64,000 bases of DNA from Nitrospirota bacterium (GTDB lineage Bacteria > Nitrospirota > UBA9217), in the NCBI GenBank assembly GCA_963749655.1, contig CAVVOB010000029.1:1-64000 (forward strand), read 5' to 3'. Below, one piece after another: positions 9,147-55,028 of this stretch; position 1 is the stretch's first letter; each line of letters opens with the position of its first letter. The position numbers and the translations under genes are program-made. Under the pieces are notes generated by a model. It did not search any database. It saw only the letters and a program-made list of their open reading frames with translations, and had not been told where the DNA came from.

Positions 9147-10582
9147 TCAGAAATCCAGCGGGCTCTTCACCTCTTTCCCGGGTTTGCGCGGGAGGCAGTG
9201 CAGATAGATCATCGTGGTCCTGATGTCCGCATGGCCCAGCAGCGTCTGGATCGTGCGGAGGTCGTAGCCCGCCTGAAGCAGGTGCGTGGCGTAACAATGG
9301 CGGAAGGTGTGCGACGTGACGCGCTTCGTGAGCTTCGCCTTTCGGACCGCTTCGCCGAAAACTTCCTGCATCCGCGAATCATGCACATGATAACGCCGCG
9401 ATTCTTTCGTTTGAGCGACGAAGGTCAGTGACTCCTGCGGTAAAAACCATTGCCAGATAAGCTCCTTCGCGGCCCGCGGATACTTCTTCTCAAGTTGATC
9501 ATCGAGAAAGACCCCGGAGAAACCCGCCGCGAGATCTTCGTCATGCAGTTTTTTCACGCGCTCCAACTGAGCATGCAGTTCCGGGAGGAGTGTCTTCGGC
9601 AGCGGCACGGTCCGTACTTTTTTGCCCTTTCCCCGGACCGTAAGGAGACCGGTATCGAAGTCGAAATCCTTGACTCGAAGCGTGCAGCCCTCCGAGATGC
9701 GCAGCCCGCACCCGTACTGGAGCTGGGCCACGAGTTTGAAGGGATGCCGGAGATGAGCCAGAACCGAATCTATTTCTTTCCGGCAAAGGACCGTGGGGAT
9801 ATAATTCGACGTCTTCGCGCGGGGGATGTCTTTATGAGTTCCGAAATCCTTGTTCAGCACATGCCGGTAGAGAAACAGCAAGGCATTGAACGCCTGATTC
9901 TGACGACTGGAGGAAACGTTGCAGTTGACCGCCAGATAAGTGAGATAAGTCCTTTACGTCCTGCGAGGACAGTTCGCCGGGGTCCTTGTCTTTCAGGTAA
10001 TTCTGGAACTTACGGCTCCAATCGGCATAATGCCTTGAGCGTTTTCCGGGAGTAATGCCGCACCTTTATTTCGGCGGCAAGTTTTTCGATGACCGTGTCC
10101 CATGCAGGAGCTTCGGTCTTTCTGAGACAGCGCCATTCGTCATACCGTCTGCCGCTTCTTTCCGGAGGCGCAAACTGAAAACCGCCCGGCGGCTCGCAAA
10201 CCATCAGAGGAGCTGTTTTCGCGGAAGCTGAATTTCGATCCGCATGGCCTTTGCCCTCAAACTGCCGCCCGGACAGCGTCGCCGCGGGAGCGCCCCCGGT
10301 GACCGACGAAGGATCGATTTTACTTCCCGGACGGGAAGCGAAAAACAGGGAAATCGCGTCCGCAGCCTGTTCAACCTGCCCCGCGGTCTGATTCTTGGAA
10401 CGCAGTTTATCGGCGAACAGCCTGACTTGATCCGATGGCGAGTCGGGGAGAGGATATTTTGCGCGAAAGTCGAGAAAATAGAGCAGCCACTTCCGGTAAT
10501 CGGCGAGAAACATGGGAGGGACATTCCGCTGTTTCAGCAGGTCGTTAAAGCCGGCGAGAATATTCTGAGGGATAGGTTTCAT
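9147..10582 (-). CDS. intI: Integron integrase (tyrosine recombinase) with N-terminal extension; frameshifts near 9960-10030
   Basis: YGCGLRISE, HTFRHCYATHLL, LLGH..IRTTMIY and the integron-specific insertion (LHDEDLAAG...LEKKYPRAAKELIWQWFLP...RRYHVHD); GGAGG RBS; adjacent attC array. Confidence 0.93.
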
Positions 10583-10807: not shown

Positions 10808-12182
10808 CATTGCTGTCCAAGATAATCTGATTTCCTGAAGCTCACCCCTACCAATCAAGGCTTTTAGACAGGTAATTCCATCATCTCGGATTCAGGTTCT
10901 TTGTTCTGCTGTCCAATTACCGATAGCTCATTACCAGTTGTTCTGCCGACGGTACAATCGGCGGTGTTTCAAACGGATTATCCAGCCATGTCCATAAATC
11001 TCGATACGTGAACAGGTTATACCGGAGCATGGCAACCAAATTCGACAACGACCAGCCGAGTGTGGAACGGAACTTCAAGTACTTCAACACCAGGATTGCG
11101 ATTAATGCTGTCCAAATCTGGGTCAGCAAAGCATTCCGGCTCGTTCCCACAAACGTCTTGATCTTCAGATTCTGCTTGATCGTCTTGAAAAATATCTCAA
11201 TCTGCCAACGGTCTTTATATATGCTCGCGATGGTCGTAGCGCCAAAAGTGAGATGATTTGTCCACAGAACAATCACCCGCTCATTGTCTGCGTCCCATAC
11301 TTCTACCCGCCGCAGGATATATGGGCATTTCCTGATTGAGTAATGGCCTGTCAGCTCAATGAGCTGGTCTTTAATGATGTTTCTGTTGTCGGGTACCGCT
11401 CTCTTTTCGATCACCTTGAAAGCGGCGTTATCCTTCTCTCTCGTTACAAAAAAAATTCCGGCCTCGGTCCATCGGGCAAACTGCTCATAGTCCACATAAC
11501 CCCGATCAATTGCCAGGATGGAGCCTTTGGGGAACGTGAGCGTATGCGCGATGTTCACTTCATGCACATTCCCCTCGGTCATACTGCAGAAGACCGGAAG
11601 ATAGCCGTCGTGGTCCAACAGCAGGTGAAGCTTGATAGCTCCTTTTTTCTGCCGATACTTTGCCCAGTCAAACAAAGTGATGCAAAGTTCTATCAGCGTG
11701 GCATCGAGGCTGAACAGCTTGTTCTTGAACCGAAACGGCTTCTTGCCGTGTGCCAGAACCCGGCACTTGGCCAGGAGCTGATAAAAGACCTTCTGGTACA
11801 GCTGCCACGGCCGATGCTCGTTGGCATAGGCCAGTGTGGAACGTTTGGGCGCTACATCTATCCCGAGGTGCTTAAGCTTGCCTAGGCATGTCGCCAATCC
11901 GCCGCAAATCTCCCGCAGCGAGTGTGCTTGTCCCAACTGACAGAACACCATTGCAACGAACTGACCCCAGCAACTGAACCCTTTTACGCCTCTTTCTGCC
12001 CGTGTTTCCCGCACCGCTCTCACAAAATCCTGCTGCGGAAATATATCTAGAATCTGTCCGAAAATGCTGTTAAACTTGTTCACGGGGATGTCCTCCTTCG
12101 GATATTTTGGTCTTCGACAAACCTACTTTATCCGATTGAGGCTTCCCCTGCAATTACTCAAATCCTATCTTGGACGGGTCTG
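10808..12182 (-). mobile_element. IS4-family insertion sequence (1375 bp)
   Basis: IRs CATTGCTGTCCAAGATA / TATCTTGGACGGGTCTG; 9-bp target duplication GCTTGCGCT at 10799-10807 and 12183-12191. Confidence 0.92.
10917..12083 (-). CDS. IS4-family transposase (DUF4372-type N-terminus + DDE)
   Basis: 388 aa; SLDATLI, AIDRGY, YKDRWQIEIFFKTIKQNL. Confidence 0.92.
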   Translation of the reverse strand: MNKFNSIFGQILDIFPQQDFVRAVRETRAERGVKGFSCWGQFVAMVFCQLGQAHSLREICGGLATCLGKLKHLGIDVAPKRSTLAYANEHRPWQLYQKVFYQLLAKCRVLAHGKKPFRFKNKLFSLDATLIELCITLFDWAKYRQKKGAIKLHLLLDHDGYLPVFCSMTEGNVHEVNIAHTLTFPKGSILAIDRGYVDYEQFARWTEAGIFFVTREKDNAAFKVIEKRAVPDNRNIIKDQLIELTGHYSIRKCPYILRRVEVWDADNERVIVLWTNHLTFGATTIASIYKDRWQIEIFFKTIKQNLKIKTFVGTSRNALLTQIWTALIAILVLKYLKFRSTLGWSLSNLVAMLRYNLFTYRDLWTWLDNPFETPPIVPSAEQLVMSYR

Positions 12183-17485: not shown

Positions 17486-17544
17486 TCCCAACCTGGCGCT
17501 CGACTGCGACGCGCCAAGGTCGGCGCGTCAGCGCCGCGTTAGAC
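17486..17544 (+). other. attC 6
   Basis: TCCCAAC...GACGCGCC/GGCGCGTC...GTTAGAC. Confidence 0.9.
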
Positions 17545-20406: not shown

Positions 20407-21003
20407 ATGAAGATCCTGATAAAAACAATAACAATCTTTTTTCTTTCGCTGGGGATATTGAGCGACTACGGGATAACGTGTGCGACCGAAACTAACAATC
20501 ATTCCTCCCCCATTGATACCAAAAGAAAGCCTTCCAAATCGATTGAGAATAAACGCAAGTACAAATTCCCATCAATCATGGTTAAACACGATATGCATCA
20601 TTGTAATAAAGATGGCGACTACAACTGCACGCCGCTTCTCGGGAATTTGGTGGTAAACAGTTGGGACATAATACATGATAAGTATGGTCGTCAGTGCAAA
20701 TATTCTTCGCCTGCAATTACCTATGCTGAATTAAAGGAATACCTGCATTTCAACGACGATGAGGTAATCTACCTGGAAAATCCGAAACCAGGCGCACCAC
20801 AGGCGGTCATAAGAACGGAATGGCTCACATGCAACATCACTTTCTTAAATCAAGTTTATGATAGGCAAGATGCGTCAGTTAAGCTGACCGCAGTTTTGAT
20901 TGACAACGAGGTTATGGCTAATTCTCTAAAAGACGAGGAATATCGCAAAAAAAAAGGAATCATAAGAACATTACTAGATTTCTTTGATGTCGTCCATCAA
21001 TAG
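20407..21003 (+). CDS. Cassette 10: exported hypothetical protein
   Basis: 198 aa with signal-peptide-like N-terminus. Confidence 0.6.
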   Translation: MKILIKTITIFFLSLGILSDYGITCATETNNHSSPIDTKRKPSKSIENKRKYKFPSIMVKHDMHHCNKDGDYNCTPLLGNLVVNSWDIIHDKYGRQCKYSSPAITYAELKEYLHFNDDEVIYLENPKPGAPQAVIRTEWLTCNITFLNQVYDRQDASVKLTAVLIDNEVMANSLKDEEYRKKKGIIRTLLDFFDVVHQ

Positions 21004-21039
21004 ACTTTCTATTCAAAAGGTTTTGAACTACGCGCGCGT

Positions 21040-21098
21040 CGACAACCTGCCGGTCCACAGCGACGCGCCATAGGCGGCGCGTGACCGGCGTGTTGAGC
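21040..21098 (+). other. attC 10, MITE inserted at its GTT
   Basis: CGACAAC...GCCGGTCCAC/GTGACCGGC...GTT|GAGC. Confidence 0.88.
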
Positions 21099-21311
21099 CT
21101 GTAGGAAAAGTCCTGAAAAGGCCTTTTTTGCACTTCCAAGACAGCGACGAATTTTTGCTGATGCTAATAGGAATGGCGATGGCGACGATTCTGAGCCCTA
21201 ATGACAGGCTCATTCTCACTCGGCCATCATCGAACGACATTGCGGCAGTTTAATCGCGATATGCGAAGACTGGCGCGTTGGGGTTCAAAAAGGGACTTAT
21301 TCTACAGACTC
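21095..21311 (+). mobile_element. 217-bp non-autonomous element (MITE) with IS1182-type ends
   Basis: IRs GAGCCTGTAGGAAAAGTCC / GGACTTATTCTACAGACTC resemble the ends of the two IS1182 copies; GTT at 21092-21094 and 21312-21314; no transposase. Confidence 0.88.
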
Positions 21312-21329
21312 GTTAGTCTGGAGTTGATA

Positions 21330-22277
21330 ATGAAATTCTCACGCCTTTTAAATGCAGTCTCTCTTCTTTTACTGATCACATCAAATGCAAATGCACAGCT
21401 GAACGATGGCAGCAAATTCGCCGATATTTTGTTTCCAGGGACCAACCAGTTGGCGAATCTGAAATCGACACCATTATCTAGCGCAGAAATTATTGCTTTA
21501 GATGGCAATATTGACCTACCTATTGACCCACACCGTGAAAAACAGTCATTTGACGAACAGATCAAGTCTTTTGCCATAGCCTCGGTTAAACATTTATTTG
21601 AAGGAGCGCGAAAGAAAGACGACAACCCGGAGTGGTATCTGAACCAGTTACAGTTTGATAAATTTGACCTGGGGAAAGGTCGGGTGGGAATAATCTGTTC
21701 TTCTTACTTTGGCGCTGAAGACATGTATGACGCAATATGGATGAAGCAAGGAAATTATTACAGGTATTCGGGCCAATTAATAGGCAAAATAGTAAAGATA
21801 TTTAGGAACACTAATAAACAACCATTTACCATTGTGACGAGAAGTGGGTGGTGTTGCGCATCAGGAATCGGCGAGTTTAATCTATATAGCCCAAAAGATG
21901 ATTCAGGGTTTATTTCCTATGAGTTGACCCAGTCTATTCAAGAACACGCAGCCGTTAAAATGCCTGAAAACCGAATGGATGCAAAAAGGATCCAGGTCGT
22001 GGAGCAACGCTATCGTCTCAGAGAATCCCCAGAGATAGATGACAAACCATACATGAATGAGTTTGAAGGTGACGAAGTTATCGGCAATGTACTCGCTGAA
22101 TTTAAGACAGGCGATAAGGGTACGGCAATTGCTGAGAAAACTGACAATACAGGTAGAATATGGTGGTTTGTGATAATGGAACCAGTTGCTGGACAAACGT
22201 ATACGCGGTTCAATGATAATAAAAGTCAGTCCACGATGGGCTGGATGAGTTCACGATATCTTAAAGTAATAAAGTGA
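21330..22277 (+). CDS. Cassette 11: secreted hypothetical protein, possible C-terminal SH3-like domain
   Basis: Signal peptide MKFSRLL...ANA; LRESP...WWFV...GWMSSRYL. Confidence 0.7.
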   Translation: MKFSRLLNAVSLLLLITSNANAQLNDGSKFADILFPGTNQLANLKSTPLSSAEIIALDGNIDLPIDPHREKQSFDEQIKSFAIASVKHLFEGARKKDDNPEWYLNQLQFDKFDLGKGRVGIICSSYFGAEDMYDAIWMKQGNYYRYSGQLIGKIVKIFRNTNKQPFTIVTRSGWCCASGIGEFNLYSPKDDSGFISYELTQSIQEHAAVKMPENRMDAKRIQVVEQRYRLRESPEIDDKPYMNEFEGDEVIGNVLAEFKTGDKGTAIAEKTDNTGRIWWFVIMEPVAGQTYTRFNDNKSQSTMGWMSSRYLKVIK

Positions 22278-22282
22278 ATGAA

Positions 22283-22342
22283 GACTAACGATAACGCTCG
22301 AGAGGGTCGCTAAAAACCGCGCCCCTCAGCGTCGCGTTGAAC
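22283..22342 (+). other. attC 11, IS1182 inserted at its GTT
   Basis: GACTAAC complements GTTAGTC at 21312; ends GTT|GAAC. Confidence 0.9.
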
Positions 22343-24127
22343 CTGTAGGAAAAGTCATTTTATGCTATAATGACGCCATTAAAATGCTGCACGGAAGCAT
22401 GAATACCCCTCACCCACGGGAGCGCGCATGGCGAAATACAAAGACTACGATTATTCCCAAGGCAAATTTATCCCGATCAACTTCGACAAACAAATCCTCC
22501 CCGGCACCTTCGAACACACCCTCCACTATCTCATCGACAACGACCTCGACCTATCCGCTTTTGATCTCCGGTACAGGAACGACGAAACCGGCGCCCCGGC
22601 CTACGATCCCCGGATCATGCTCAAGATCGTCCTGTATGCCTACTCCAAAGGGATCACCTCCAGCCGGAAGATCGCCGACTGTTGCAACGAGAATGTCGTG
22701 TTCATGGCCCTGTCCGCCGACACCCGGCCGCACTTCACCACGATCGCCGATTTCATCTCATCGAACGACCAGGAGACGGTGAAGCTCTTCCTTGAAGTAC
22801 TCTTTATCTGCGACCGGATGGGCCTGATCGGCAAAGAGATGTTCGCTATCGATGGCTGCAAGCTCCCTTCGAACGCTTCAAAGGAATGGAGCGGAACTAA
22901 AAAGGATCTCGACGTAAGAAAGAAAAGATGGAGAAGGCGATCAAGGCAATGATCGCTCAGCATAAGGAACGGGACAAAACCGAGACCGACCACGCGGTAA
23001 TCGAGAAGGAAGAGCAGTATATAGCCACCCTCAAGGCGAAGATCAAAAAGATAAAAGACTTCATGAACGATAACGACGACAAGCCCGGCAGCAAGGGGCC
23101 GAGGAAGAGCAACATAACCGACAACGAAAGCGCGAATATGATGACTTCGCACGGAGTAGTCCAGGGTTACAACGGTGTAGCCATGGTGGACAGCAAACAC
23201 CAGGTAGTTGTCCATGCCGATGCGACCGGAGACTCCGAGACTGCAATACTTAAACCCATGGTCGAAGGGACCCGGGGAAACTTCAAGACAATCGGAAAAG
23301 AAGAGGACATCTTCAAAAAGACCCAACTGACGACCGATGCCGGTTTTCATTCCGCAATGAACGTGCAGATGGTAATCGAAGAAGGCATCGACGCATACAT
23401 CGCGGATAACAAGTTCCGTCATCGCGATCCCCGATATGCTACGGCCGACAGGCATAAGGAGAGGTTCAATAAAGAGATCGCAAAGAAATTCGACCGGCCG
23501 ATCGTCTTCCAGCCGAGAGACTTCACGGTGAGCCCGGATAAAAGCTTCTGCACCTGCCCGGCCGGGAAACGGATGTACAAATGCGGCAACGCGAATCATC
23601 ATGGACTCCATGCGATCAAGTATCACGGAACAAAACGAGACTGTATCCCGTGCACGCAGCGCGCGCAGTGCCTGAAGAACCCCGAAGTGACCGAAACGCG
23701 CCAGTTCTCCCATTTCACAGGCAGGACCAACAAACAAGAAAAGACCTTCACGCAGAAGATGCGAGAGAAGATAGACTCGGTGGCCGGCAAGTTGATCTAC
23801 GGACGAAGGATGGCGACGGTCGAACCGGTATTTGCTGACATCCGATCGAGTCTCGGTCTCGACCGCTTCAGTCTCAGAGGGAAAAAGAAGGTAAGCACCC
23901 AGTGGCGGCTATACTGTGTGGTTCACAACCTGCTCAAAGTGCACCGATACGGGTTCGGGTTCGCGGAAAGTTGAGATAACGGGAAGCAGAAAGAGAAAGA
24001 AAATGCAGTAGCGAGATCGACCAGGACCGATTGAATCACGCAAAAGCTCAAATCAAGAACTCACCCTGATAAAAACTTGCTACCGGGGATCAATGATGCT
24101 TTTCAAATCGACTTTTTCTACAGACTC
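22339..24127 (+). mobile_element. IS1182-family insertion sequence, copy 1 (1789 bp)
   Basis: IRs GAACCTGTAGGAAAAGTC / GACTTTTTCTACAGACTC; GTT at 22336-22338 and 24128-24130. Confidence 0.92.
22428..23974 (+). CDS. IS1182-family transposase, frameshift near 22915
   Basis: GAPAYDPRIMLKIVLYAY (DUF772-type), AIDGCK, TDAGF, CPAGK, RRMATVEPVF. Confidence 0.9.
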
Positions 24128-24161
24128 GTTATACCAGCTCAAATATTAAGGTTTGGATATC

Positions 24162-24641
24162 ATGACTAGAATAGAACGAAATTGGAAGGACAAGCAGATC
24201 CTGTTGCCATATGCTCTTCTCTGGTTAACTTTGACAGCCAACTTCTGGATGAGAACCAGGAATGAGCCGTTTGTCTTTAGTCCGCTAAATATACTTATGC
24301 TTGGCTTGTTTCTATTCATGATTTGTCATATCGCGGCAAAAGCTATCTGGCTATTCAGGAATCCGTTTGCCCTCATAGATCAGGACCGCCTTGTTATCAG
24401 TGTTGCTCCTTTTCAGAAGGAAGTAATAAAGATTCACGAAATTACAAAGGCACGAGAAATATTGTCTCGCGAGGCAATGACTATATTTGGGTTCAAGTCC
24501 GAGTATGACAACTGGGTTCTCATGTTTGACACTTTGAATAATATGACCACAACTATATCACTCAGAGCATATCTCGATAAGCGTGAGCATCTGCTGCGAC
24601 TGTTAACAGAAAATAACATTCCTATTGAGAAAGATGTATAA
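24162..24641 (+). CDS. Cassette 12: two-TM hypothetical protein
   Basis: Two N-terminal TM helices; stop at the attC. Confidence 0.6.
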   Translation: MTRIERNWKDKQILLPYALLWLTLTANFWMRTRNEPFVFSPLNILMLGLFLFMICHIAAKAIWLFRNPFALIDQDRLVISVAPFQKEVIKIHEITKAREILSREAMTIFGFKSEYDNWVLMFDTLNNMTTTISLRAYLDKREHLLRLLTENNIPIEKDV

Positions 24642-24700
24642 CATAACCTGAACGCTCGAGAGGGTCGCTAAAAAACGCGACCTTCAGCGTCGCGTTAGTC
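24641..24700 (+). other. attC 12
   Basis: ACATAAC...GTTAGTC; similar to attC 11. Confidence 0.88.
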
Positions 24701-24719
24701 CTGGCAAGATTTAAGGAAC

Positions 24720-25544
24720 GTGAAGAATATGATGACAAATTTTCTTATAGTCTTATTCTGTTTAGCCGCTGGTCTCTCGCTCGGCAATATCGCAGGTACA
24801 TCAATGTCGATGGCCCTTGGACTTGATTTACCTGCAGGACCATACATCGGAGCCGTTATGGGCGGTATCCTTGGCTTGCTGTTTTCGCCACTCTTTCTCC
24901 TGAAAAAAGTGCGCAACAACATCTTCGAGATACTTGCTTTATGTTTCGCTCTTGCAGTTCCAGTTGCCGTGATTTCTAGTCTTGCTCGGCAGCCGTGGTT
25001 CTCAATCGGACTGACTTTGGCTACTGTGATTTCCGTCTACATCTTTGCATTATGGAGGGGCGATGACACGGGCACCTCGTTGTCATCAAAAAAGAAGATT
25101 CTGTACGCTCCCTTAGCCGCTGTCGTCCTTGCATCTTTCGCCGCGTATTGGTCAGAGGACAAAAGGCTCCCTAACGACGTTCCCACATTAATAGAAATGA
25201 TGGGTGATAATGATATGGCAGTACACGTAGACGCCGCACGAAAGCTGATGAAACGAGGAAAAGAACCTTTTCTAACCGCATTACATCATAAAAACCCAAA
25301 TGTACGTGCGGTGGCAGCTCACTCTTTAGGTCTTCTCCACGACCCATCAGTTCAGGCTGCTTTAATTGAAAGCGCAACTGATCCTGATCAATATGTTCGT
25401 ATGTGGTCGGCGTTTTCGCTTGGGGTAATAGGTGATGAGAACGCGCTGCCCACTCTAACTGCTCTAACGAAAGATAAAGTGGAAGTTGTTCGAGTTGATG
25501 CACAAGAAGCGATAGCCAAACTCGAAAAACGATTGAAACACTAA
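24720..25544 (+). CDS. Cassette 13: membrane protein with C-terminal HEAT repeats
   Basis: Several TM helices, then NVRAVAAHSLG, YVRMWSAFSLG, VVRVDAQEAI. Confidence 0.8.
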   Translation: MKNMMTNFLIVLFCLAAGLSLGNIAGTSMSMALGLDLPAGPYIGAVMGGILGLLFSPLFLLKKVRNNIFEILALCFALAVPVAVISSLARQPWFSIGLTLATVISVYIFALWRGDDTGTSLSSKKKILYAPLAAVVLASFAAYWSEDKRLPNDVPTLIEMMGDNDMAVHVDAARKLMKRGKEPFLTALHHKNPNVRAVAAHSLGLLHDPSVQAALIESATDPDQYVRMWSAFSLGVIGDENALPTLTALTKDKVEVVRVDAQEAIAKLEKRLKH

Positions 25545-25596
25545 CTAATCGTTCGAGTCCCGCGCTTACTGCGCGGGGCTCAACTCGTCGTTATCG
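25539..25596 (+). other. attC 13
   Basis: CACTAAC...CCCGCGC/GCGCGGG...GTTATCG. Confidence 0.85.
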
Positions 25597-25598
25597 TC

Positions 25599-25754
25599 TC
25601 AATCTGTTGCCGGTCCGTATGGTGGCAAATTATTTTCTTTGAGGTGCTTTTCCCACGCAACCTGATCCCATGGCACATAGCCTGGATACGGCTCAATTTT
25701 AAATGCCTGATCCGTCAGGGGATCCGAAGGAAATAATTGTAATTGTTCACCCAT
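25599..25754 (-). CDS. Cassette 14: reverse-oriented 51-aa peptide
   Basis: Hand translation MGEQLQLFPSDPLTDQAFKIEPYPGYVPWDQVAWEKHLKENNLPPYGPATD; spans the cassette between its core sites. Confidence 0.55.
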   Translation of the reverse strand: MGEQLQLFPSDPLTDQAFKIEPYPGYVPWDQVAWEKHLKENNLPPYGPATD

Positions 25755-25756
25755 GA

Positions 25757-25813
25757 CGATAACCATAATTTCGACAACGACACGCTTCGCGGCGTGTCAA
25801 ATTGTCGTTAGGC
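25757..25813 (+). other. attC 14
   Basis: CGATAAC complements GTTATCG; GACACGC/GCGTGTC; GTTAGGC. Confidence 0.88.
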
Positions 25814-25867
25814 TGTAGATCAGGAAACATAATTGACCTAGACAATTCAAATGCAGAAGGGGGTATT

Positions 25868-26926
25868 ATGTTCAAGATCAGCGCGTTCCCGAAGAAGAAT
25901 CTGAAATGGTGGTTTCAGCAGGAAGCCACTATCGATTTTGATCCCGATTTCCAGCGAACTTCACGGGTCTGGAAGGATAAGGACAAAGCATTTCTGATTG
26001 ACTCTATCCTGAACGGTTTTGACATCCCCAAAATTTATGTTGCCGATTTCACAAAACACAATATCCCATCAATGAACCGTCACGGCAAGAGCTATGCTAT
26101 TATCGACGGCAAACAAAGATTAACAGCTATCTTTGCGTTCCTCCACGATCGTTTACCACTCCACAAGAAATTTCGCCTGGAGTCCCAACCAATGCTGGAT
26201 ATCGGCAACCTGCGCTTCAGCGACCTCAAGAAGCAACAACCGCAAATCGCCAGAATCATCGATAAATATGTCCTCGACGTCAAGGTTATCGAAACAGACG
26301 ACCGAAAAAAGATCAACGATGTCTTTCTTCGCCTGAATAAGGCCTCTAAAGCTTTAAACGGAGCGGAGGTTCGCAACGCTATGATTGGGCAAGCAGTTGA
26401 CGCGATACGCGACGTGGCGAAAGATAGTTTCTTCGTTCGTAGGATTCGCTTCTCTACGGATCGCAGCCAAGAACGCAATGCGACCGCGAAGATGCTGCTT
26501 CTTGAGTACGAAAGCGGTCCTACAGAGACAAAGAAAAAGAATTTAGACGCATTCGTCACAAGTATAGGCGAGAGTGGTAGTGGCCGGTTTAACCGCACCG
26601 TACGCCGGGTCAAGACCAATTTGAAAGTGCTCTCTAGCGTGTTCCGGAATCAGGACCCGTTATTAGGTGCTCAGGGGCATCTGCCCTTGTATTACATGTT
26701 CATATCGCGCCTTAGACCCGCGGACCGCCGGGCTGTTCGCGTCTTTCTTGAAACCCTTGAGCGGCAGAGGGTGCGTAATCGCAACAGGACTACTGCCGCC
26801 GGTGACCGCGCCTTGGACCAGTATGATCTTGCTAGCCGTAGTATCAACGATAAAATCAGTTTTGAGACACGCCTGCGGATTATCAGGGCTAAATATGTGT
26901 CTTGGAAGCGAAGCCATAGAATTTAG
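25868..26926 (+). CDS. Cassette 15: DUF262 (GmrSD/ParB-like) domain protein
   Basis: PDFQR..VW...LIDSILNGFDIP...IIDGKQRLTAI...VFLRLN. Confidence 0.85.
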   Translation: MFKISAFPKKNLKWWFQQEATIDFDPDFQRTSRVWKDKDKAFLIDSILNGFDIPKIYVADFTKHNIPSMNRHGKSYAIIDGKQRLTAIFAFLHDRLPLHKKFRLESQPMLDIGNLRFSDLKKQQPQIARIIDKYVLDVKVIETDDRKKINDVFLRLNKASKALNGAEVRNAMIGQAVDAIRDVAKDSFFVRRIRFSTDRSQERNATAKMLLLEYESGPTETKKKNLDAFVTSIGESGSGRFNRTVRRVKTNLKVLSSVFRNQDPLLGAQGHLPLYYMFISRLRPADRRAVRVFLETLERQRVRNRNRTTAAGDRALDQYDLASRSINDKISFETRLRIIRAKYVSWKRSHRI

Positions 26927-26986
26927 GTGTCACACATCAGCCTTGACCTCAGCGGTCATGTAGCAAGCCGTTACCTATCATAATGA

Positions 26987-27043
26987 TCCCAACCACGCCG
27001 TCGAGAGGGTCGCAAAAACGCGCCCCTCACGGCGGCGTTGTAC
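26987..27043 (+). other. attC 15
   Basis: TCCCAAC...GTTGTAC. Confidence 0.9.
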
Positions 27044-27076
27044 GTAAATAATGTTTTATCCTATTGAGGAGATAGC

Positions 27077-27514
27077 ATGCTTCCATCCAAAGACGGAATA
27101 GACAAATGGATAAAAGACCAGATATGGAAAATAGCAGCAGCGCCACTGCTATCGTTATTATCTCTTCTGAGTCCGAGTGTGAGAAAATTCCTAATTGACC
27201 ACATTCTCCCATTGCTATCACAAAAAATACTGCTGATAACCACGCTGCTGTGCTCATACCTATCAGTTCTTTTGTTCCTAGCAATTTGTTCCCTCCGCAA
27301 AGAAATAAGAGATATTCAATGTCTAAAAGCCGACTTTGGAATTTATTGGGATAAAAATAAAAAACCATTTTGCCCAAATTGTAAAATTCCACTCTCCGGC
27401 TATAGTGAAAATCCCCAGCCCGTTTTCTATTGTCATGGGCATGATAAGCTGGTTTATATACACGACAATAAAGGCGTCCCCATTACCCAATCTGAAGCTC
27501 AAAGCAGATTATGA
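27077..27514 (+). CDS. Cassette 16: TM + zinc-ribbon-like hypothetical protein
   Basis: Hydrophobic N-half; FCPNCK...FYCHGH. Confidence 0.65.
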   Translation: MLPSKDGIDKWIKDQIWKIAAAPLLSLLSLLSPSVRKFLIDHILPLLSQKILLITTLLCSYLSVLLFLAICSLRKEIRDIQCLKADFGIYWDKNKKPFCPNCKIPLSGYSENPQPVFYCHGHDKLVYIHDNKGVPITQSEAQSRL

Positions 27515-27527
27515 TAAAAGAACACGA

Positions 27528-27587
27528 TTACAACCACCGCGTCCACATCGACTCGCCAAAAAGCGGCGAGTGACGCGGACGTTAGTC
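27528..27587 (+). other. attC 16
   Basis: TTACAAC...GTTAGTC. Confidence 0.88.
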
Positions 27588-27607
27588 CTCAAAGGAGAAG
27601 TACTTCT

Positions 27608-28198
27608 ATGGCTTATCAAGGTCACAGAAAATTAATCGTAGGCCTCTCGCTGCTGATTATTCTATTAATGCTAGGTTGTGACTTGACCGGTGCCAAAAAT
27701 TCAAAACAAATAAGTTATTCAAATACGCTTAACACTCCCGAAGAAGTCGTCGCCCTGTTTTGCGACATGGATTATTCTGGCAAGCGGTTATCAGGCTCAA
27801 CATGGAAAGAAATTCTTCCATACATAACATGGCCGGATGAACCAGGTTGGGATACAGTTCTTGTGGTGTCAAAATACAAACTTGCAGACGTTAAGCGTTC
27901 GGACAACACCGCTGACATTACAGTTGAGTACCATGTCGTGGGCAAGTACGGCACAGAATTATTGCAGGTTGACAAGATTGAAAAGGTACCTTTCAAAGTA
28001 ATCAAAACTGAAAATGGATGGAAAATTAATAGTCCCGACTCGATGTTGCCGCATGTTTCTCCAATGACATTATTGTCGAACTTGGAGGACAGACTTAAGG
28101 AAGAACAAGACTCGTCAATATCAAATAGGCTGCGACAAGAAATCGCTATCTTGAAAGCAAATCAAACTACTAAAGTGCAACAAACAATGAAAGACTAA
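27608..28198 (+). CDS. Cassette 17: putative lipoprotein
   Basis: Lipobox MLGC after a hydrophobic signal. Confidence 0.7.
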   Translation: MAYQGHRKLIVGLSLLIILLMLGCDLTGAKNSKQISYSNTLNTPEEVVALFCDMDYSGKRLSGSTWKEILPYITWPDEPGWDTVLVVSKYKLADVKRSDNTADITVEYHVVGKYGTELLQVDKIEKVPFKVIKTENGWKINSPDSMLPHVSPMTLLSNLEDRLKEEQDSSISNRLRQEIAILKANQTTKVQQTMKD

Positions 28199-28253
28199 TA
28201 CCCGTCGTTCGACAGCGACGCGCCAAAGGCGGCGCATCAGGCGGGCGTTAGCG
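28193..28253 (+). other. attC 17, degenerate (R'' AAC>AAT)
   Basis: GACTAAT...GACGCGCCAAAGGCGGCGC...GTTAGCG. Confidence 0.8.
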
Positions 28254-28290
28254 CGATAATGATTTCTATTGCCGCAGAGGACCTTACATA

Positions 28291-28857
28291 ATGAATACAA
28301 AGAATGGACAGATCATAGCGCATACGGACTATATCAATGCTCGATTTGAATCATCAAAATTACAATATGCAATGATCATATCTATGATTTTTGTCGGGCC
28401 ACTGGGGCTTCTCTATGGCTTCACTGGCTTACTGGCAAGTCAAGATTTTAAATTTAACGGACCAGTTAAGATAATGTTAGTCATAGTTTGCCTCGCTTTG
28501 GTCGGAGTTGCAGCAGTTTTCAAGTCACTAAGGAAATATTGGGTTTTTAAAATATCTACAACTCATACCGGCATCACCTCTGTCGGTCTGTTCAGAACGA
28601 TTTACGCAAATTGGCATGAAATAATGTCAATTGATGTCATTTCAACCGGAATCTTATTTGGCGGGCAAATGGTTGTTGTTCGGACACGTCCAGGAGATTT
28701 TTATTTCCCATTAACCATGAAGGAAAAAGGAAATGAATTCCCTAAATTAGATTTATTGGGGGAAAAGTGGGTGGATTCCACTGGCTTGAAGAGACCGATT
28801 GCGCCAGAGAATTGCTCACTTTATTCAGCTGTAAAAAATAATCTAAGCAAACAATGA
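28291..28857 (+). CDS. Cassette 18: two-TM hypothetical protein
   Basis: 188 aa; two TM helices then a soluble domain. Confidence 0.65.
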   Translation: MNTKNGQIIAHTDYINARFESSKLQYAMIISMIFVGPLGLLYGFTGLLASQDFKFNGPVKIMLVIVCLALVGVAAVFKSLRKYWVFKISTTHTGITSVGLFRTIYANWHEIMSIDVISTGILFGGQMVVVRTRPGDFYFPLTMKEKGNEFPKLDLLGEKWVDSTGLKRPIAPENCSLYSAVKNNLSKQ

Positions 28858-28863
28858 CTATCT

Positions 28864-28923
28864 TTCCAACATGCCGGTCCACAGCGACGCGCCAAAAGGC
28901 GGCGCGTGACCGGCGTGTTATCT
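28864..28923 (+). other. attC 18
   Basis: TTCCAAC...GTTATCT. Confidence 0.9.
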
Positions 28924-29458
28924 GCGAAAAATTATGTCGATAAAACATCTATCACAAGTTGAAGTCGCAATAATAGGAGAATGCTTAAAGGCGGCCTCCT
29001 CTGGTCCTTTTTTACGTCAGGGACAATTCTTTGATGAAGAAGTCCTGGGCTTTAATCTTGACGAACTACTTGACGTGTCTTCCAAATGGCCGCAGGTTTT
29101 CCTAGATAACAAAATTAATAGTGTCGTTAACAATGTACTCGCCGCGTTTATGCCAGATGGCTATCCATTGTATAAACGAGAGGATTGGGACAAGTGGATA
29201 TCGGCTTCGCCTGCCGAAGTTGACGAGATTTTAGCAAAATGGCGACGTCGCGATTGTCCGTTGAATGAAAAAGAAGCCGTTGAACTTGCCTCAAAGTACG
29301 CATTCAATGACGAAATTAATAACGCTGAATTTAAAATTGAAAAGAAGCCTGTTGCCAATTTCAAAGTCAACATCAGTTATAACAAATCTTGGGGCTGGGT
29401 CTTTAGACTAGAACCAGCATCAGATTTTTTAAGGCCAGTAGTGATAGTTAATAAATAT

Positions 29459-30835
29459 GGGTCTTCCGGGTTTAGTGTGGGTCATTTATAGCATCTGGGA
29501 GAAAGGAAGTCAGCACCTTCAGCTGAAGATACTCTTTATCCTTTATGCCATAAGCCCGACGTTGAATTACCCGAATCTTGTTGTTTAATCCCTCCATGAA
29601 CCCGAGGGAGACCTTGTTGTCGGGATGACAGTAACTGATGATTCCATCCCAGTGGCGTTCGATCATTGCAGCAAACTTTTGAAACGGTTCCAAGCGGCTC
29701 CAGCGAAGCTGTTCTTTCCAGTTCTCAAAGAACTTCCGTGCCCAGGTCGGATTGTTGTATGACCACAGCTGGCCGAAAGATTCCTTGAGTAAATAAGCCT
29801 TGTGAAGGCGGCTATTGGCCTTGAGTAGGAGTTTCAAAGCCCGCTTGCCATTCATATCCAGGTTGTCCCGGTTTGAAAGCAGCGTATAGCGCTGGCCCTT
29901 GATGAACCGTCGTTCTTTGTCATTGACACGTTTGTATTCGCTCCGCCTAACCTCATCCAAGGCGAACGACAGGTGCCGGAGTACATGGAACTTGTCGAAG
30001 ACGAGCTGAGCGTCCGGTGCATGGTGTTTAGTAGCGTTTCTGAAAGGCTTCCACATATCCATGACCGCCAGCTTGATGCCCTTCGATATATCCGGTCCAA
30101 TTTCATTGAAGAAGAGGTCTAAATCCTCTTCCTTGCGGCCGTTGCCGCCAAGCCATATCGGGCGCTGCTGATCCAGATCGGCAACAACGATTGCATAGGT
30201 ATGGCCCTTACGGATGGATATTTCATCGATGCCGATCACGCGAAGGTCCTTGGACGGCGGGTGCTTCGCCAGCAAATCACGCATGTAGCTTTTCTCGATG
30301 CGCTGGACCTGGTCCCAGCTTAAGCGGTTCATCTCAGCTACTCGCGATATGGACATTTCACGACACTGACGCCCAATGGCCTGTTCGAACCGTCCGGTGA
30401 ATCTCTTGGATGATGCCAGCCAGGCAAGGGTCTCTCGCTTCACGGCTTGGCACCTCCGGCAGAATATGCGGCGATACTCGAACTCGAGAGGATCCGAATG
30501 CCGCCGGAGTCCAGATCTCTGACCCGATGGTTGACGCGATCGTAGAAGCCTCGTCGGCTACTGCCACAGGAACAGGTAGTTTTTTTTGCCGTCGTCGCAG
30601 GATGATAATACGACCACCGGGATCGTCCGGGTCATCCTTTAACCGTGACTGGGCTCGAAATCCCGGAAAGCTATAGAGCGAGCTAAGGGTGGTCTTCTTC
30701 ATAAGGCAAGACGATACCCTTTGCACCGAAACGTGTCAAGTTATCAAAGAGCAATAAATCGTTAAAAGCAGCTTCAAATGGGCCTTATATCCATATATAT
30801 GCTTCTTAGTGACCCACAGGAAAGTCAGAAGATCC
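29459..30835 (-). mobile_element. ISL3-family insertion sequence (1377 bp)
   Basis: IRs GGGTCTTCC...TGTGGGTCA / TGACCCACA...GAAGATCC; 8-bp target duplication ATAAATAT at 29451-29458 and 30836-30843. Confidence 0.92.
29472..30702 (-). CDS. ISL3-family transposase, split 5' end
   Basis: IGIDEISIRKGHTY, VMDMWKPF, FDKFHV, EGLNNKIRVIQRRAYG; A8 tract (T8 at 30580-30587) near a frame break. Confidence 0.9.
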
Positions 30836-30942
30836 ATAAATATAACGGCTTTCATTTTGCTTGTTCGGATAGTGCCGATAACCATGCGGCGAATTATGAA
30901 AAAACACTATCGAAGTGGGAACTGAGTTAAACGAACAACAAA

Positions 30943-31001
30943 AGATAACCTGCGCCTCGACAGCGACGCGCCAAAGGCGGCGCGTCAGCCGCGCGTTGAA
31001 C
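30943..31001 (+). other. attC 19, IS1182 inserted at its GTT
   Basis: AGATAAC complements GTTATCT at 28917; ends GTT|GAAC. Confidence 0.9.
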
Positions 31002-32791
31002 CTGTAGGAAAAGTCATTTCATGCTATAATGACGCCATCGAAACGCAGTACGGAAGCATCAAAACCCCTCACCCACGGGAGCGCGCATGGCGAAATACAA
31101 ACATTACGATTATTCCCAAGGCAAATTCATTCCGATCAACTTCGACAAACAGATCCTCCACGGCACCTTCGAACACACCCTCCATTATCTCATCGACAAC
31201 GACATCGACCTGTCCGCTTTTGACCTCCGGTACAAGAACGACGAAACCGGCGCTCCGGCCTACGATCCCCGGATTCTCTTAAAGATCGTCCTCTACGCCT
31301 ATTCCAAAGGAATCACCTCAAGCAGAAAGATCGCCGACTGCTGCAACGATAACGTCGTCTTCATGGCCCTTTCCGCCGACACCCGGCCCCACTTCACGAC
31401 AATCGCCGACTTCATCTCCTCCCATGACCAGGAAACGATGAACCTCTTCCTCGAAGTCCTCCTGATCTGCGACCAGATGGGCCTGATCGGCAAAGAGATG
31501 TTCGCCGTAGACGGCTGCAAACTCCCCTCGAACGCCTCGAAGGAGTGGAGCGGTACCAAGGAAGAACTCGAACATAAGAAAGAGAAGATGGAGAAGGCCA
31601 TCCGGGAGATGATCGCGCAGCACAAGGAGCGGGACAAAACCGAGACCGACCAGGCGGTCATCGAGAAAGAAGAACAGTACATTTCAACGCTCAAGGCGAA
31701 GATCAAGAAGATAAAGACCTGGCTTGCTGAAAACGACGACAAGCCCGGCAGCAAGGGCAAGCCCCGGAAGAGCAACATAACCGATAACGAAAGCGCCAAT
31801 ATGAAGACTTCGCACGGGGTTGTCCAGGGATACAACGGCGTAGCCATGGTGGACAGCAAACACCAGGTAGTGGTCCATGCAGAGGCGACCGGAGACTCCG
31901 AATCCGCAATACTGAAACCCATGGTCGAAGGAACCCGGGAGAACTTCGAGACAATCGGCAAAGAAGAGGACATCTTCAAAAAGACCAAACTGACGACCGA
32001 CGCCGGCTTCCACTCCGAAAAGAACGTGGAGATGGTAATCGAGGACGGCATCGACGCATACATCGCCGACAACAAGTTCCGACACCGCGATCCCCGGTTT
32101 GCCGAAGCGGACAGACACAAGGAGAGGTTCAACAAGGAAGTTGCCAAACGATTCGACCGAGCCATCATCTTTCAACCGCGCGACTTCACGGTAAGCCCGG
32201 ACAAAAGCTTCTGCATCTGCCCGGCCGGGAAACGGATGTACAAATGCGGCAATGCGATCCATAATGGACTACAGGCGATCAAGTACCACGGAACAAAACG
32301 AGATTGCATCCCTTGTCAGCTCAGGGCGAAGTGCATGAAGAACCCCGACGTGACCGAAACCCGTCAGTTCGCCCACTTTACCGGAAGGACCGACCAACAA
32401 GAACAAGACGTTCACGCAGAAGATGCGGGAGAAGATAGACTCGGTAGCCGGCAAGCTGATCTACGGACGAAGAATGGCGACGGTCGAACCGGTCTTTGCC
32501 AATGTCCGGAGCAGCCTCGGCCTCGATCACTTCAGCCTCAGAGGGAAAAAGAAGGTGAGCATTCAGTGGCGGCTCTACTGCGTCGTGCACAATCTATTGA
32601 AGGTGCATCGATACGGGTTTGGATTCGCGGGTAGTTGAGGTAAAGGGAAGCCGAAAGGGAAAGAAAATGCAGTAGCGAGATCGACCAGGACCGATTGAAT
32701 CACGCAAAAGCTCAAATCAAGAACTCACCCTGATAAAAACTTGCTACCGGGGATCAATGATGCTTTTCAAATCGACTTTTTCTACAGACTC
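30998..32791 (+). mobile_element. IS1182-family insertion sequence, copy 2 (1794 bp)
   Basis: Same IRs as copy 1; GTT at 30995-30997 and 32792-32794. Confidence 0.92.
31087..32638 (+). CDS. IS1182-family transposase, frameshift near 32397
   Basis: Close but non-identical homologue of 22428-23974. Confidence 0.9.
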
Positions 32792-32794
32792 GTT

Positions 32795-32826
32795 GGGGTT
32801 CAAAAAGGGACTTATTCTACAGACTC
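32795..32826 (+). mobile_element. Right-end remnant of the MITE (32 bp)
   Basis: Identical to 21280-21311 and followed by GTT at 32827. Confidence 0.88.
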
Positions 32827-32861
32827 GTTATTCATACCGACGATGGAGGCACTCTCTCCCA

Positions 32862-52133: not shown

Positions 52134-52194
52134 ATTTAATTCAGTGAGGAGTAAGGAGTGAGGTGGAAGGTGAAAAGGAATCAGGGAAGAGACC

Positions 52195-52240
<46 letters not shown>

Positions 52241-52242
52241 CT

Positions 52243-53164
52243 TCACGATACCTCAATCAACGTCACAAACACATCCTCGAGCGACGGCACGATCTTCTCT
52301 ATTCTTCTGACATTAATGCCCGCGCCCTCCAGGTGCCGGCGAATCAGGGGCTCGGCTGCTGCGGCGTTTTCCACTGTCGCATGGAGCACGCTCCCGAAAA
52401 TCGCTGATTCGATATTATTCCTGTTCAACAGGTCCATCGCATCGACGACGCGGTCCGCGTCGATTTCCAGCACGTCCCTGGTCATGTACTTCAATTTGAG
52501 CTCGTTCGGTGTGCCTTCGGCAATGATCCTGCCGCGGTAAATGAGCCCCAGCCGGTCACAGTAATCCGCCTCGTCCATATAGTGCGTCGTAACAAAGACC
52601 GTGGTCCCTGCCTGGGACATTTCATAGATCATGGTCCAGAAGTTGCGGCGCGAAACCGGGTCCACACCCGAAGTGGGCTCGTCGAGGAACAGGATCGGCG
52701 GTTCGTGCAGCACGGCGCAACCCAGGGCCAGCCGCTGTTTGAAGCCGCCGGGAAGCGTCCTCGTAACGGAGCCCCTTTTGTCTTCAAGGCCCGCCATGGA
52801 CAGGACCCATCTTTTCCGCTCGTCTTTTCTCGAATCGGGCACCGAGTAGATGCCGCTGTAGAAGTTGATGTTCTCGTCGACCGTCAGATCGTCATAGAGC
52901 GAAAACTTCTGCGACATGTAGCCGATGGTCTTCTTGATTTCCTCGGATTGCTTGATGATGTCATAACCGCCTACGGTCCCGCTTCCGCCTGAAGGCAAAA
53001 GCAGGCCGCAGAGCATCTTGATCGTTGTCGACTTTCCCGCTCCGTTCGGCCCGAGGAAACCGAAGATCTCGCCTTTCCTGACTTCGAGGTCGATCCGGTC
53101 CACGGCAATGAAATCACCGAACGTGCGGGTGAGACCCTTAACTGTGACTGCAGATCGCTGTTAT
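52243..53164 (-). CDS. ABC transporter ATP-binding protein; 5' end uncertain
   Basis: GPNGAGKST, LDEPTSG. Confidence 0.88.
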
Positions 53165-54147
53165 GATTTATGGTCATTTGTTCGCCTTAATTCCGCATTC
53201 CGCAATCCGCATTCCGCAATGCCTTCCTTCTTCTCCACCATCGATATAAACACGTCTTCAAGCGACGGCTGAATGTCCCGCAGCCCCTTGACTTCGATTC
53301 CCATTTTCTTGACTGCTTCGACAACCGACCCTGCAGCCTCCCGTTGCTCCAGGGCGATGTGGAGCCTGTCGCCGTAGATGCTTGCGCTCCTTGTGCCCGG
53401 TATCTGCCGCACGACAGGAAGGGCTGACCGGGCATCGCCGGACCAAAGCTCGATCATGGGTAGACCGAGCGATTGTTTGATCGCCGCGGGATTGTCTAGT
53501 TTGAGCACCTTTCCGTTGTGCATCAAGGCGATCCTGGTGCAGCGTTCGGCTTCGTCAAGATAGGCTGTCGAGACAAAGATGGTAATGCCTTCCTTTAAGA
53601 GATCATAGAGGATCTTCCAGAAGTCCCTGCGCGATACCGGGTCCACGCCGTTCGTCGGTTCGTCGAGAAAGAGCACTTCCGGAGTATGGATAAGCGAGCA
53701 GGCGAGGCCCAGCTTCTGCTTCATGCCGCCCGAGAGCTTGCCGGCAAGTCGGTCCTTGAACGGGGTCAGATTGCTGAACCCGAGGAGCCGTTCGATGCGG
53801 GGCGGCCGCTCCTTTTTCGGCACTTCATAGAGGTCTGCATAGAACAGGATATTTTCCATGACCGTCAGATCTTCGTACAGCCCGAAGCGCTGCGACATGT
53901 ATCCGATCTTTTCTTTTATCCTCTCGCCTGCAGTGCGGATGGAAAGACCGGCCACCCATGCATCACCCGAGGTGGGGTCCATGATCGCGGCAAGGAGACG
54001 CATGGTCGTGGTCTTTCCAGCGCCGTCAGGCCCCACGAGTCCGAACAGCTCGCCTTTCGGGATCTCGATGTTCAAGCAGTCAACGGCAGTAAGGCTGTTA
54101 AACGACTTCGTAAGATTGTCAGTCTTTATTGCAGCGAAATTGTTCAC
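53161..54147 (-). CDS. ABC transporter ATP-binding protein
   Basis: GPDGAGKTT, LSGGMKQ, LDEPT. Confidence 0.92.
   Translation of the reverse strand: MNNFAAIKTDNLTKSFNSLTAVDCLNIEIPKGELFGLVGPDGAGKTTTMRLLAAIMDPTSGDAWVAGLSIRTAGERIKEKIGYMSQRFGLYEDLTVMENILFYADLYEVPKKERPPRIERLLGFSNLTPFKDRLAGKLSGGMKQKLGLACSLIHTPEVLFLDEPTNGVDPVSRRDFWKILYDLLKEGITIFVSTAYLDEAERCTRIALMHNGKVLKLDNPAAIKQSLGLPMIELWSGDARSALPVVRQIPGTRSASIYGDRLHIALEQREAAGSVVEAVKKMGIEVKGLRDIQPSLEDVFISMVEKKEGIAECGLRNAELRRTNDHKS
53190..53220. repeat. Heptamer tandem repeat (AWTCCGC)n
   Basis: ATTCCGC ATTCCGC AATCCGC ATTCCGC AAT; related tract near 60341-60364. Confidence 0.8.
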
Positions 54148-54196
54148 TCCTGACTCCTTGCTCCTGACTCCTTGCTCCTGACTCCTGCCTTCTGAC
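54146..54196. repeat. Degenerate heptamer tandem repeat (ACTCCTG/GCTCCTG/ACTCCTT)
   Basis: About 7 units filling the intergenic gap. Confidence 0.85.
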
Positions 54197-54197
54197 C

Positions 54198-55028
54198 CTA
54201 CGGTTTCATCAAGATCCTTACATCCGCCGGCATGCTTGGTTTGAGCTCGTCATTCACGTTCTTCACGCTCACCTTTACGCCGAAGACGAGCTTCACCCGC
54301 TCTTCCTTTGTTTGGACATTTTTAGGGGTGAATTCTGCCTCCGATGCAATATAGGTAACCGTGCCGTCATAAACCTTGCCGGGATAGGTATCGGTGGAGA
54401 CGAAAACCTTCTGTCCCAGTTTTATGAGCCCCAGCTTGTCTTCCTTTACGTAGACCTTGATCCAGGGATTTTCGAGATCGCCTATCGTGAATACGGGAGT
54501 TCCTACCGCTACCGTCTCGCCTGCTTCCACGTTCTTTTTGAGCACTACGCCCGATACCGGTGCGTACAGCACTGCGTCCCTCATCCGTACTTCGCTGGTC
54601 CTGAGCGCGGCCGTTGATTGCCGGATCTGTGCCTGCGCCACATCGTAGACTGTTTTTGCCGCGTCCATCTGCTGGGCTGAGATCGCTTCTTGCTTAAAAA
54701 GCATCTCCGCCCGCGTAAAATCATTCTTTGCCTGTTCGAGCTGCGCATTCGAATGTTCAAGGACGGCTTTGCTTTGTGCAACCTGGGTCGCATACTCCGC
54801 GTTGTCGAGCTGGGCGATCTTATCGCCCGCCTTCACGGTTCGGCCTTCATCGGTGAGCAGCGTTGTAACCCTGCCGGGAATCTTGAACGCAACGTCGACT
54901 TCCGTTACCTCCACGTTGCCCGAAAGTGTCATATTTCCCTGGTCGCGGTTATTCCCGAATCGATATACCAGCGCCGTTGCTACGACGGCCGCCAGCAGAA
55001 TTCCCGCTATGATCAATCTTTTCTTCAT
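54198..55028 (-). CDS. HlyD-family periplasmic adaptor
   Basis: N-terminal anchor; IASEAEFTPKNVQT. Confidence 0.9.
   Translation of the reverse strand: MKKRLIIAGILLAAVVATALVYRFGNNRDQGNMTLSGNVEVTEVDVAFKIPGRVTTLLTDEGRTVKAGDKIAQLDNAEYATQVAQSKAVLEHSNAQLEQAKNDFTRAEMLFKQEAISAQQMDAAKTVYDVAQAQIRQSTAALRTSEVRMRDAVLYAPVSGVVLKKNVEAGETVAVGTPVFTIGDLENPWIKVYVKEDKLGLIKLGQKVFVSTDTYPGKVYDGTVTYIASEAEFTPKNVQTKEERVKLVFGVKVSVKNVNDELKPSMPADVRILMKP

Follow-up and report, generated by a model that had tools for sequence, protein, structure and literature searches.

How do separate insertions come to stand at one and the same nucleotide of different attC sites? The question is raised by the window analysed here, a stretch of 64,000 nt on contig C29 of a Nitrospirota metagenome-assembled genome (MAG; 4.27 Mb, 39 contigs, 86.6% complete). 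Its integron cassette array holds a miniature inverted-repeat transposable element (MITE) and two insertion sequences (IS) of the IS1182 family, each placed directly behind the GTT that closes an attC R' site. A sequence-only reading of the window had proposed an attC-crossover-specific DDE transposon guided by attC structure. Our analysis leads to a modified answer, in which a clade of IS1182 elements, together with its MITEs, inserts after the attC GTT and probably does so mainly by recognising the primary sequence of the right-hand arm.

All three elements lie on the plus strand, co-oriented with the cassette open reading frames (ORFs). The MITE (21095-21311, 217 bp, IS-type terminal inverted repeats) follows the attC at 21044-21094 (nhmmer match 21042-21108; anchored arm score, explained below, of 12), whose GTT occupies 21092-21094, and is itself followed by GTT at 21312-21314 (...GTGTT|GAGCC...GACTC|GTT). 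IS copy A (22339-24127, 1789 bp) follows the attC at 22288-22338 (nhmmer match 22283-22351; GTT at 22336-22338), and copy B (30998-32791, 1794 bp) the attC at 30947-30997 (nhmmer match 30942-31011; GTT at 30995-30997). The next GTT stands at 24128-24130 and 32792-32794, respectively, and both IS copies read ...GCGTT|GAACC...GACTC|GTT at their junctions. The imperfect 18-bp terminal inverted repeats agree at 15 of 18 positions, and the three occupied attC sites differ in internal sequence. These positions and junctions agree with those given in the sequence-only reading. So does its remark that no attC hairpin is broken, unlike the case of an ISL3-family element in the same array: the hairpins are intact, and the ISL3 element lies within a cassette ORF.

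Behind copy B, the 32 nt at 32795-32826 match the right end of the MITE in the same orientation (blastn, MITE positions 182-217, 100%) and are closed by a further GTT at 32827-32829. This remnant marks an older element displaced downstream by copy B. The MITE also carries an internal ...GGCGCGTT right before its final 32 nt, the stretch that survives as the remnant.

IS1182-family elements carry one ORF, measure roughly 1.3-2 kb and have terminal inverted repeats. The intact copies described here have this layout, with a single 515-aa ORF in elements of 1789-1794 bp bounded by terminal inverted repeats. The intact protein (P0001) scored 278.7 bits on NF033551, 'IS1182 family transposase' (cut-off 270), over profile positions 24-487 of 488, and shows the domain order of the family, an N-terminal DUF772 (PF05598, 59.2 bits) and a C-terminal DDE_Tnp_1_6 (PF13751, 82.6 bits), with a DDE_Tnp_1 match (PF01609) of 40.1 bits. 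The frameshifted copy B reached just 210.2 bits on NF033551. The MITE is short and non-coding, with IS-like ends and GTT flanks, and is present four times, three copies being identical and one at 81%. Another MAG (L013) has a homologous MITE that follows an IS in tandem. As a separate observation, the interior of the MITE, not just its ends, is conserved between genomes (L013 from 4225; C14:216627-216843).

The transposase genes of both IS copies in the window read as frameshifted. In copy A, which is 99.9% identical to the intact copy on contig C28, a 1-nt gap (alignment column 633) divides the gene into ORFs 22428-22952 and 22928-23974. Copy B, at 87% identity to the other copies, has an extra base near 32405 (column 1466) that throws ORF 31087-32634 off the transposase frame. 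Its C-terminal frame is lost, its DDE_Tnp_1_6 match ends at residue 451, and its C-terminus is unlike that of the intact copies. These frameshifts could be assembly errors. The final ~136 bp of copies A and B (23991-24127 and 32655-32791) are 100% identical and the coding parts only ~87%, a pattern that suggests gene conversion or recombination between IS lineages in this genome.

A DNA search of the genome returned four further full IS copies, each with an intact 515-aa ORF. Three are on contig C38, namely a mutually 100% identical tandem pair (144911-146699 and 146703-148491) with GTT exactly between its members and a single copy (139170-140958); the fourth (C28:190018-191807) interrupts a long beta-helix-repeat ORF. 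A 132-bp left-end fragment (C30:121266, region 121228-121397) stands after an attC with a deleted centre (...CTCGACAGCGACGCGTT|), followed by an abrupt switch to unrelated DNA. MITE copies 100% identical to that of the window follow attC sites at C30:120050-120266 and C14:216407-216623, and an 81% relative (C14:216627-216843) lies in tandem behind the latter, again with GTT between. Altogether the genome contains 12 insertion events, made up of six full IS, four MITE copies, the left-end fragment and the remnant. Seven adjoin an nhmmer-defined attC, three lie behind another element, one follows a degenerate attC and one is in a gene. Thus 11 of the 12 events are in an attC context. Every element having a right end is flanked there by GTT, the C30 left-end fragment being the sole one without. 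The exceptional C28 site has no 5' arm and ends in ...TTCAGCGCCGCGTT, the last 12 nt being those that end the attC at 17490.

Element activity in this genome is recent, since three MITE copies are 100% identical and so are the two members of the C38 tandem pair. Of the two MITEs in the C14 tandem, the one next to the attC is 100% identical to the copies elsewhere and the farther one is at 81%. The young MITE being the proximal one, new insertions therefore enter the GTT next to the attC.

Is this placement a property of one genome? Loci were collected by a genome-contig scan (17) and a metagenome scan (46), to which a genus search added two occupied attC sites and a family search one (L095); three rows (L074, L075 and L082) repeat L008 and L010. 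Elements whose left end could not be found were left out (L009, L020, L024/L056, L051, L052, L054, L058, L060, L066 and L067), and those with TGTCG-type ends and GCT/TTA flanks were tallied apart (L016-L019, L022, L049, L053, L057 and L062). The pooled set comprised 53 readable left junctions, 44 foreign and 9 from the present genome. All 53 sites end in GTT (44 in CGTT) and all elements have a single orientation, a regularity across genomes that excludes chance. A T-[C/G/T]-A triplet stands 6 or 7 nt ahead of YGTT at 52 of the 53 sites, as against 9.3% of 106,311 background GTT sites of this genome. This motif, T-B-A-N6/7-YGTT, corresponds to the L'-spacer-R' arm of attC. No element in the opposite orientation and no AAC flank was found among the loci examined, and the right flank is GTT in 22 of the 26 foreign elements having a right end. 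The uncounted L052 has a left end 1 nt shorter, after an attC-like ...GCGCGTT. With its homologues collected in this manner, the attC-crossover-specific IS1182 group postulated by the sequence-only reading is borne out in position after the R' GTT, orientation and flanking GTT.

The elements are also taxonomically widespread. One relative, at 40.7% aa identity, comes from the finished genome of the cultured gammaproteobacterium Pseudoalteromonas piscicida (L088); it follows an attC-like site of ~95 nt ending in ...CGGCGTT and has GTT on its right side. Among the matches listed, a protein search gave at least 120 homologue clusters at 64% identity or more, which their sources name merely 'IS1182 family transposase' or 'transposase'. 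An attC nearly identical to the target of copy A is found in relatives empty, with a GTT end, at five places and filled at two.

Such data bear on the simplest alternative, that there is no intrinsic specificity and the pattern stems from random insertion with survival in the neutral spacer behind attC, or from assembly chimeras of two repeat classes. Cassette boundaries are plausible safe havens, and assemblers have difficulty with repeats such as attC sites and IS. Even so, the nucleotide position and orientation are identical at all 53 sites, drawn from many independent assemblies, and in the finished genome of a cultured organism (L088), and elements have unique flanks on both sides. The C28 copy disrupts a gene with the motif still present, and the ISL3 element shows that an insertion in this same array can sit within an ORF. 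We regard this explanation as very unlikely, to the point of being negligible.

If the specificity is intrinsic, does the transposase read a fold or a sequence? Hairpins were measured by an anchored arm-complementarity score, for which 1194 random CGTT sites set the 95th percentile at 7 and the 99th at 9.5. A score of at least 10 was obtained for 16 of the 19 attC sites in the window, and a score of at least 9 for 18 of 40 foreign flanks and for ~1.5% of the random sites. We then folded 18 of the 22 failing flanks along with 2 passing ones. In 7 of the 18, the L' arm pairs upstream, giving attC-like sites that are asymmetric or have a mutated AAC (L012 is ambiguous). No 3'-arm hairpin was found in 11 flanks (L043, L044, L042, L040, L037, L030, L061, L038, L021, L039 and L050), about a quarter of the foreign sites, and all 11 contain T-B-A-N6/7-YGTT. 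Two other measures were uninformative: the free energy of the best fold closed by AAC...GTT did not separate real attC from background, and an unanchored Smith-Waterman arm score separated them less well still. Since the 11 hairpin-less flanks and the C28 copy keep the motif, they indicate that the primary sequence of the L'-spacer-R' stretch is by itself sufficient for targeting. The structure-guided part of the sequence-only reading fares poorly against these same 12 sites.

A structural mechanism nonetheless has precedent within the family. The transposase would recognise the folded attC hairpin or cruciform and join the element at its 3' foot, the motif merely mirroring the makeup of attC. 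IS1272 and TnSha1, IS1182-family elements of staphylococci, are described in the reports cited as inserting into stem-loops with no sequence consensus, without duplication, with partial or complete deletion of the stem-loop and in both orientations (PMC4923244, PMC5678879). The elements studied here resemble them, as far as those descriptions go, in belonging to the same family and in taking a palindromic or stem-loop target instead of a random site, and the majority of the targets are attC hairpins. They differ in their strict motif, their nucleotide-exact position, their single orientation, the GTT on both sides and the preservation of the hairpin; neither the absence of a duplication nor the stem-loop deletion reported for IS1272 is seen. 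Together with the hairpin-less sites that keep the motif, these differences make recognition of the fold a rather unlikely explanation, and we prefer recognition of the arm sequence.

Several points weigh against the preferred reading. The strict 13-nt motif has 104 matches in the Nitrospirota genome. Elements occupy 6 of the 18 that fall within attC and none of the other 86, a disparity that also speaks for the structural mechanism. Either more of attC or its fold matters, or insertions elsewhere have been purged. The hairpin tests were crude and used no attC covariance model, so sites classed as non-hairpin may be long or degenerate attC. Most of the data come from MAGs and short metagenome contigs, and four foreign elements (L008, L012, L037 and L065) have a right flank other than GTT. 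No true pair of empty and filled sites was found, which leaves a 3-bp duplication indistinguishable from an element bringing its own terminal GTT. The paralogue alignment of the C28 site does not discriminate, scoring 84 with one GTT, 81 with two and 85 with none.

The search for an empty site covered several sources. The left flank of the C28 copy had no orthologue among 40 relatives searched. The cassettes beside the MITE and copy A were not conserved in 60 genomes of the family, in which only attC sites matched. Contigs of four public runs over 20900-24300 gave IS and attC pieces and no skipped (empty) form. In one of these runs (X2, a wetland metagenome), a single 1950-nt contig joins the right end of the IS to its left part (24131 -> 22428); the IS of that sample would be either circular or paired in tandem.

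A related clade provides a second view of the flanking triplet. At 42-52% aa identity, these elements (L016-L019, L022, L049, L053 and L057, also L024/L056) have TGTCG-type ends and GCT on both sides. Their flanks are conserved (CTGCT before and GCTATCT after; CTGCT|ATCT) and not attC-like, which looks as if one IS lineage had two different site-specific targets. In a quick maximum-likelihood tree of 31 transposases, the GCT rows form one clade, sister to the two GTT-targeting rows L046 and L047, with long branches at that join.

On balance we favour a true target duplication, to judge from three indirect arguments. Cassettes of an uninterrupted array share one GTT, the upstream cassette ending in G and the downstream one starting with TT, and here each side of the element has a full triplet. 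Between tandem elements there is GTT and nothing else. In the sister clade both flanks are GCT, so that the triplet co-varies with transposase lineage. Each of the three favours duplication.

The sequence-only reading had further held that the insertions rebuild the integron core site. The left end of the element is always GA(A/G), and the junction is consequently always GTT-R-R-R. A perfect GTTRRRY is present at the three window copies and is not a conserved property of the clade, being restored at 29 of 56 junctions; the others read GTTRRRR, and the C38 copies have G as the seventh base. In addition, the new RRRY does not pair with the upstream attC R''. The claim thus holds for the window and not for the group.

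Proximity to the crossover also raises the possibility that the integron integrase (IntI) placed the elements. In this scheme, a circular IS would be integrated at G|TT like a cassette, and the GTTs would be crossover products instead of a duplication made by the transposase. GTT on both sides is a signature of cassette integration too, the insertion position is within 2 nt of the crossover, and the X2 contig links the right end of the IS to its left part as a circle or a tandem would. The elements nevertheless lack an attC of their own and combine inverted repeats of IS type with a DDE transposase, and MITEs bearing the same ends also move. Sites that are neither attC nor hairpin are used as well, the sister clade is flanked by GCT at a target other than attC, and both intI genes read as frameshifted, yet MITE copies are 100% identical. 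We consider capture by IntI decidedly unlikely.

Comparison with gene cassettes leads to the same distinction. Like a cassette, the element has a crossover point and a GTT on either side, and in formal terms the IS now belongs to the cassette downstream. Unlike a cassette, it has inverted repeats and a transposase and is also found outside integrons. Neither IS nor MITE has the 3' attC of a cassette, no attC being detected inside them by nhmmer in the window, and for the IS this rules out a reading as a cassette-like element. By geometry, the IS, 2 nt beyond the crossover, belongs to the next cassette, and it is from this geometry alone that the movement by IntI proposed in the sequence-only reading would follow. 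No sign was found that IS have travelled by IntI. The cassettes that follow the three identical MITE copies are all different, and both intI genes read as frameshifted.

Returning to recognition of the arm sequence, we propose the following model. A clade of IS1182-family DDE elements would encode a transposase which also mobilises the non-autonomous MITEs in trans. It would insert the element immediately 3' of the attC R' GTT, with the transposase gene in the cassette sense and a 3-bp GTT duplication. The target would be chosen mainly via the right-hand arm, that is T-[C/G/T]-A of L', a spacer of 6-7 nt and (C/T)GTT. The L'-spacer-R' stretch is the part of attC bound by IntI. That the transposase itself reads this motif, and that insertion has any effect on IntI recombination, is what we infer from the placement of the elements. 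The folded hairpin or the remaining attC may boost efficiency and would not be required. Insertion 2 nt downstream of the G|TT crossover would leave the hairpin unharmed and turn the element into the 5' part of the cassette that follows. Further copies would enter the attC-proximal GTT and displace older ones downstream, so building tandem arrays.

Two classes of mobile elements are already associated with attC. In the reports cited, IS1111-attC elements (ISPa21, ISPst6 and ISKpn4; IS1111/IS110 family) are described as a clade that targets attC at a fixed position and in one orientation (PMC3001079, PMC11187229), using a DEDD transposase guided by a seekRNA (PMC11187229). As so described, they parallel the present elements as an IS clade within a larger family that is attC-specific with one orientation and a fixed position. 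Group IIC-attC introns are portrayed as a monophyletic lineage specialised on attC, with possible effects on expression of the next cassette, and both they and IS1111-attC are said to insert close to the 5' end of attC and in antisense orientation relative to the cassettes (PMC3001079). The present group shares with the introns that it is one lineage of a mobile-element class specialised on attC. It differs from IS1111-attC in its DDE transposase, its insertion after the 3' GTT, its sense orientation and the GTT on both sides; only DDE-type families matched its protein. The introns are retroelements that use the bottom strand in antisense, and the present elements have no reverse transcriptase. 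No Rfam family matched within 20900-24300.

A search of the full-text literature, with ISfinder and TnCentral entries outside it, returned no report of IS1182 elements at attC. The sequence-only reading had known of no attC-crossover-specific IS1182 group, and only IS1111-attC and group IIC-attC introns were found. In the passage concerned, a 2025 integron paper refers attC targeting solely to two IS1111 papers (PMC12444791). Judged from its sequences, the present group is a member of the IS1182 family with what appears to be a new, nucleotide-precise target.

The array spans 13663-35989 on the plus strand with 19 attC matches (nhmmer), and every site has the architecture AAC, imperfect palindrome, GTT. 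TTAGTC, which opens the cassette at 21312, is the exact complement of GACTAA in the R'' of its own attC (22288), and the cassette boundaries are therefore placed as integron theory predicts. ORF 21201-22277 begins within the MITE; the likelier start of the cassette gene behind it is the ATG at 21331. A promoter and terminator scan of 21000-24300 gave signal at shuffle level. The intI gene (9153-9992, minus strand; TIGR02249, 317.9 bits, profile positions 34-313) reads as broken by a single in-frame TAA or frameshift, ORF 9147-9881 alone scoring 283.4 bits, and an IS4-family transposase (10917-12083) separates it from the array. C38 carries a second integron, whose intI (149106-150550) reads as split across two frames and whose attC cluster (matches at 137-148.5 kb) starts ~600 bp away and houses all three C38 IS copies. 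The frameshifts in both intI genes may be assembly errors.

Beyond C29, 21 more attC matches form small groups resembling clusters of attC sites lacking integron-integrases (CALINs) on C14, C15, C19, C20, C27, C28, C30, C35 and C38 (e.g. C15:163.8-168.8 kb and C38:137-148.5 kb). The ISL3-family element (29459-30835, minus strand; NF033550, 281.6 bits) lies within the cassette ORF starting at 28934, with an 8-bp direct repeat ATAAATAT and 26-nt imperfect terminal repeats; its transposase reads as two minus-strand ORFs (29472-30443 and 30358-30726). Elsewhere in the window, two runs of a CTCCTGA-like 7-nt unit (52181-52252 and 54133-54204) stand 1.9 kb apart.

IS5/IS1182-type transposases are usually viewed as weakly specific. 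The present group would offer a tractable example of nucleotide-precise, orientation-specific targeting by such an enzyme. It would make a third class of attC-targeting elements, with a classical DDE transposase, at the crossover end and in sense orientation, and the group is common in environmental metagenomes. Integron annotation tools would gain by recognising these elements. Their insertion bears on the splitting of arrays into CALINs and the separation of downstream cassettes from the Pc promoter, as well as on whether IS and MITEs spread between hosts as cassette passengers. More tentatively, and with considerable doubt, a DDE lineage may have evolved to read the consensus bound by IntI, with arrays as a safe haven and IS and MITEs riding along with the next cassette when IntI moves it. 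In this view, the GCT flanks of the sister clade suggest that evolution can redirect site-specific targeting of this 3-bp kind. If such a lineage has arisen, transposition and cassette traffic would be coupled across phyla, in Nitrospirota as in 'delta proteobacteria' and Pseudoalteromonas.

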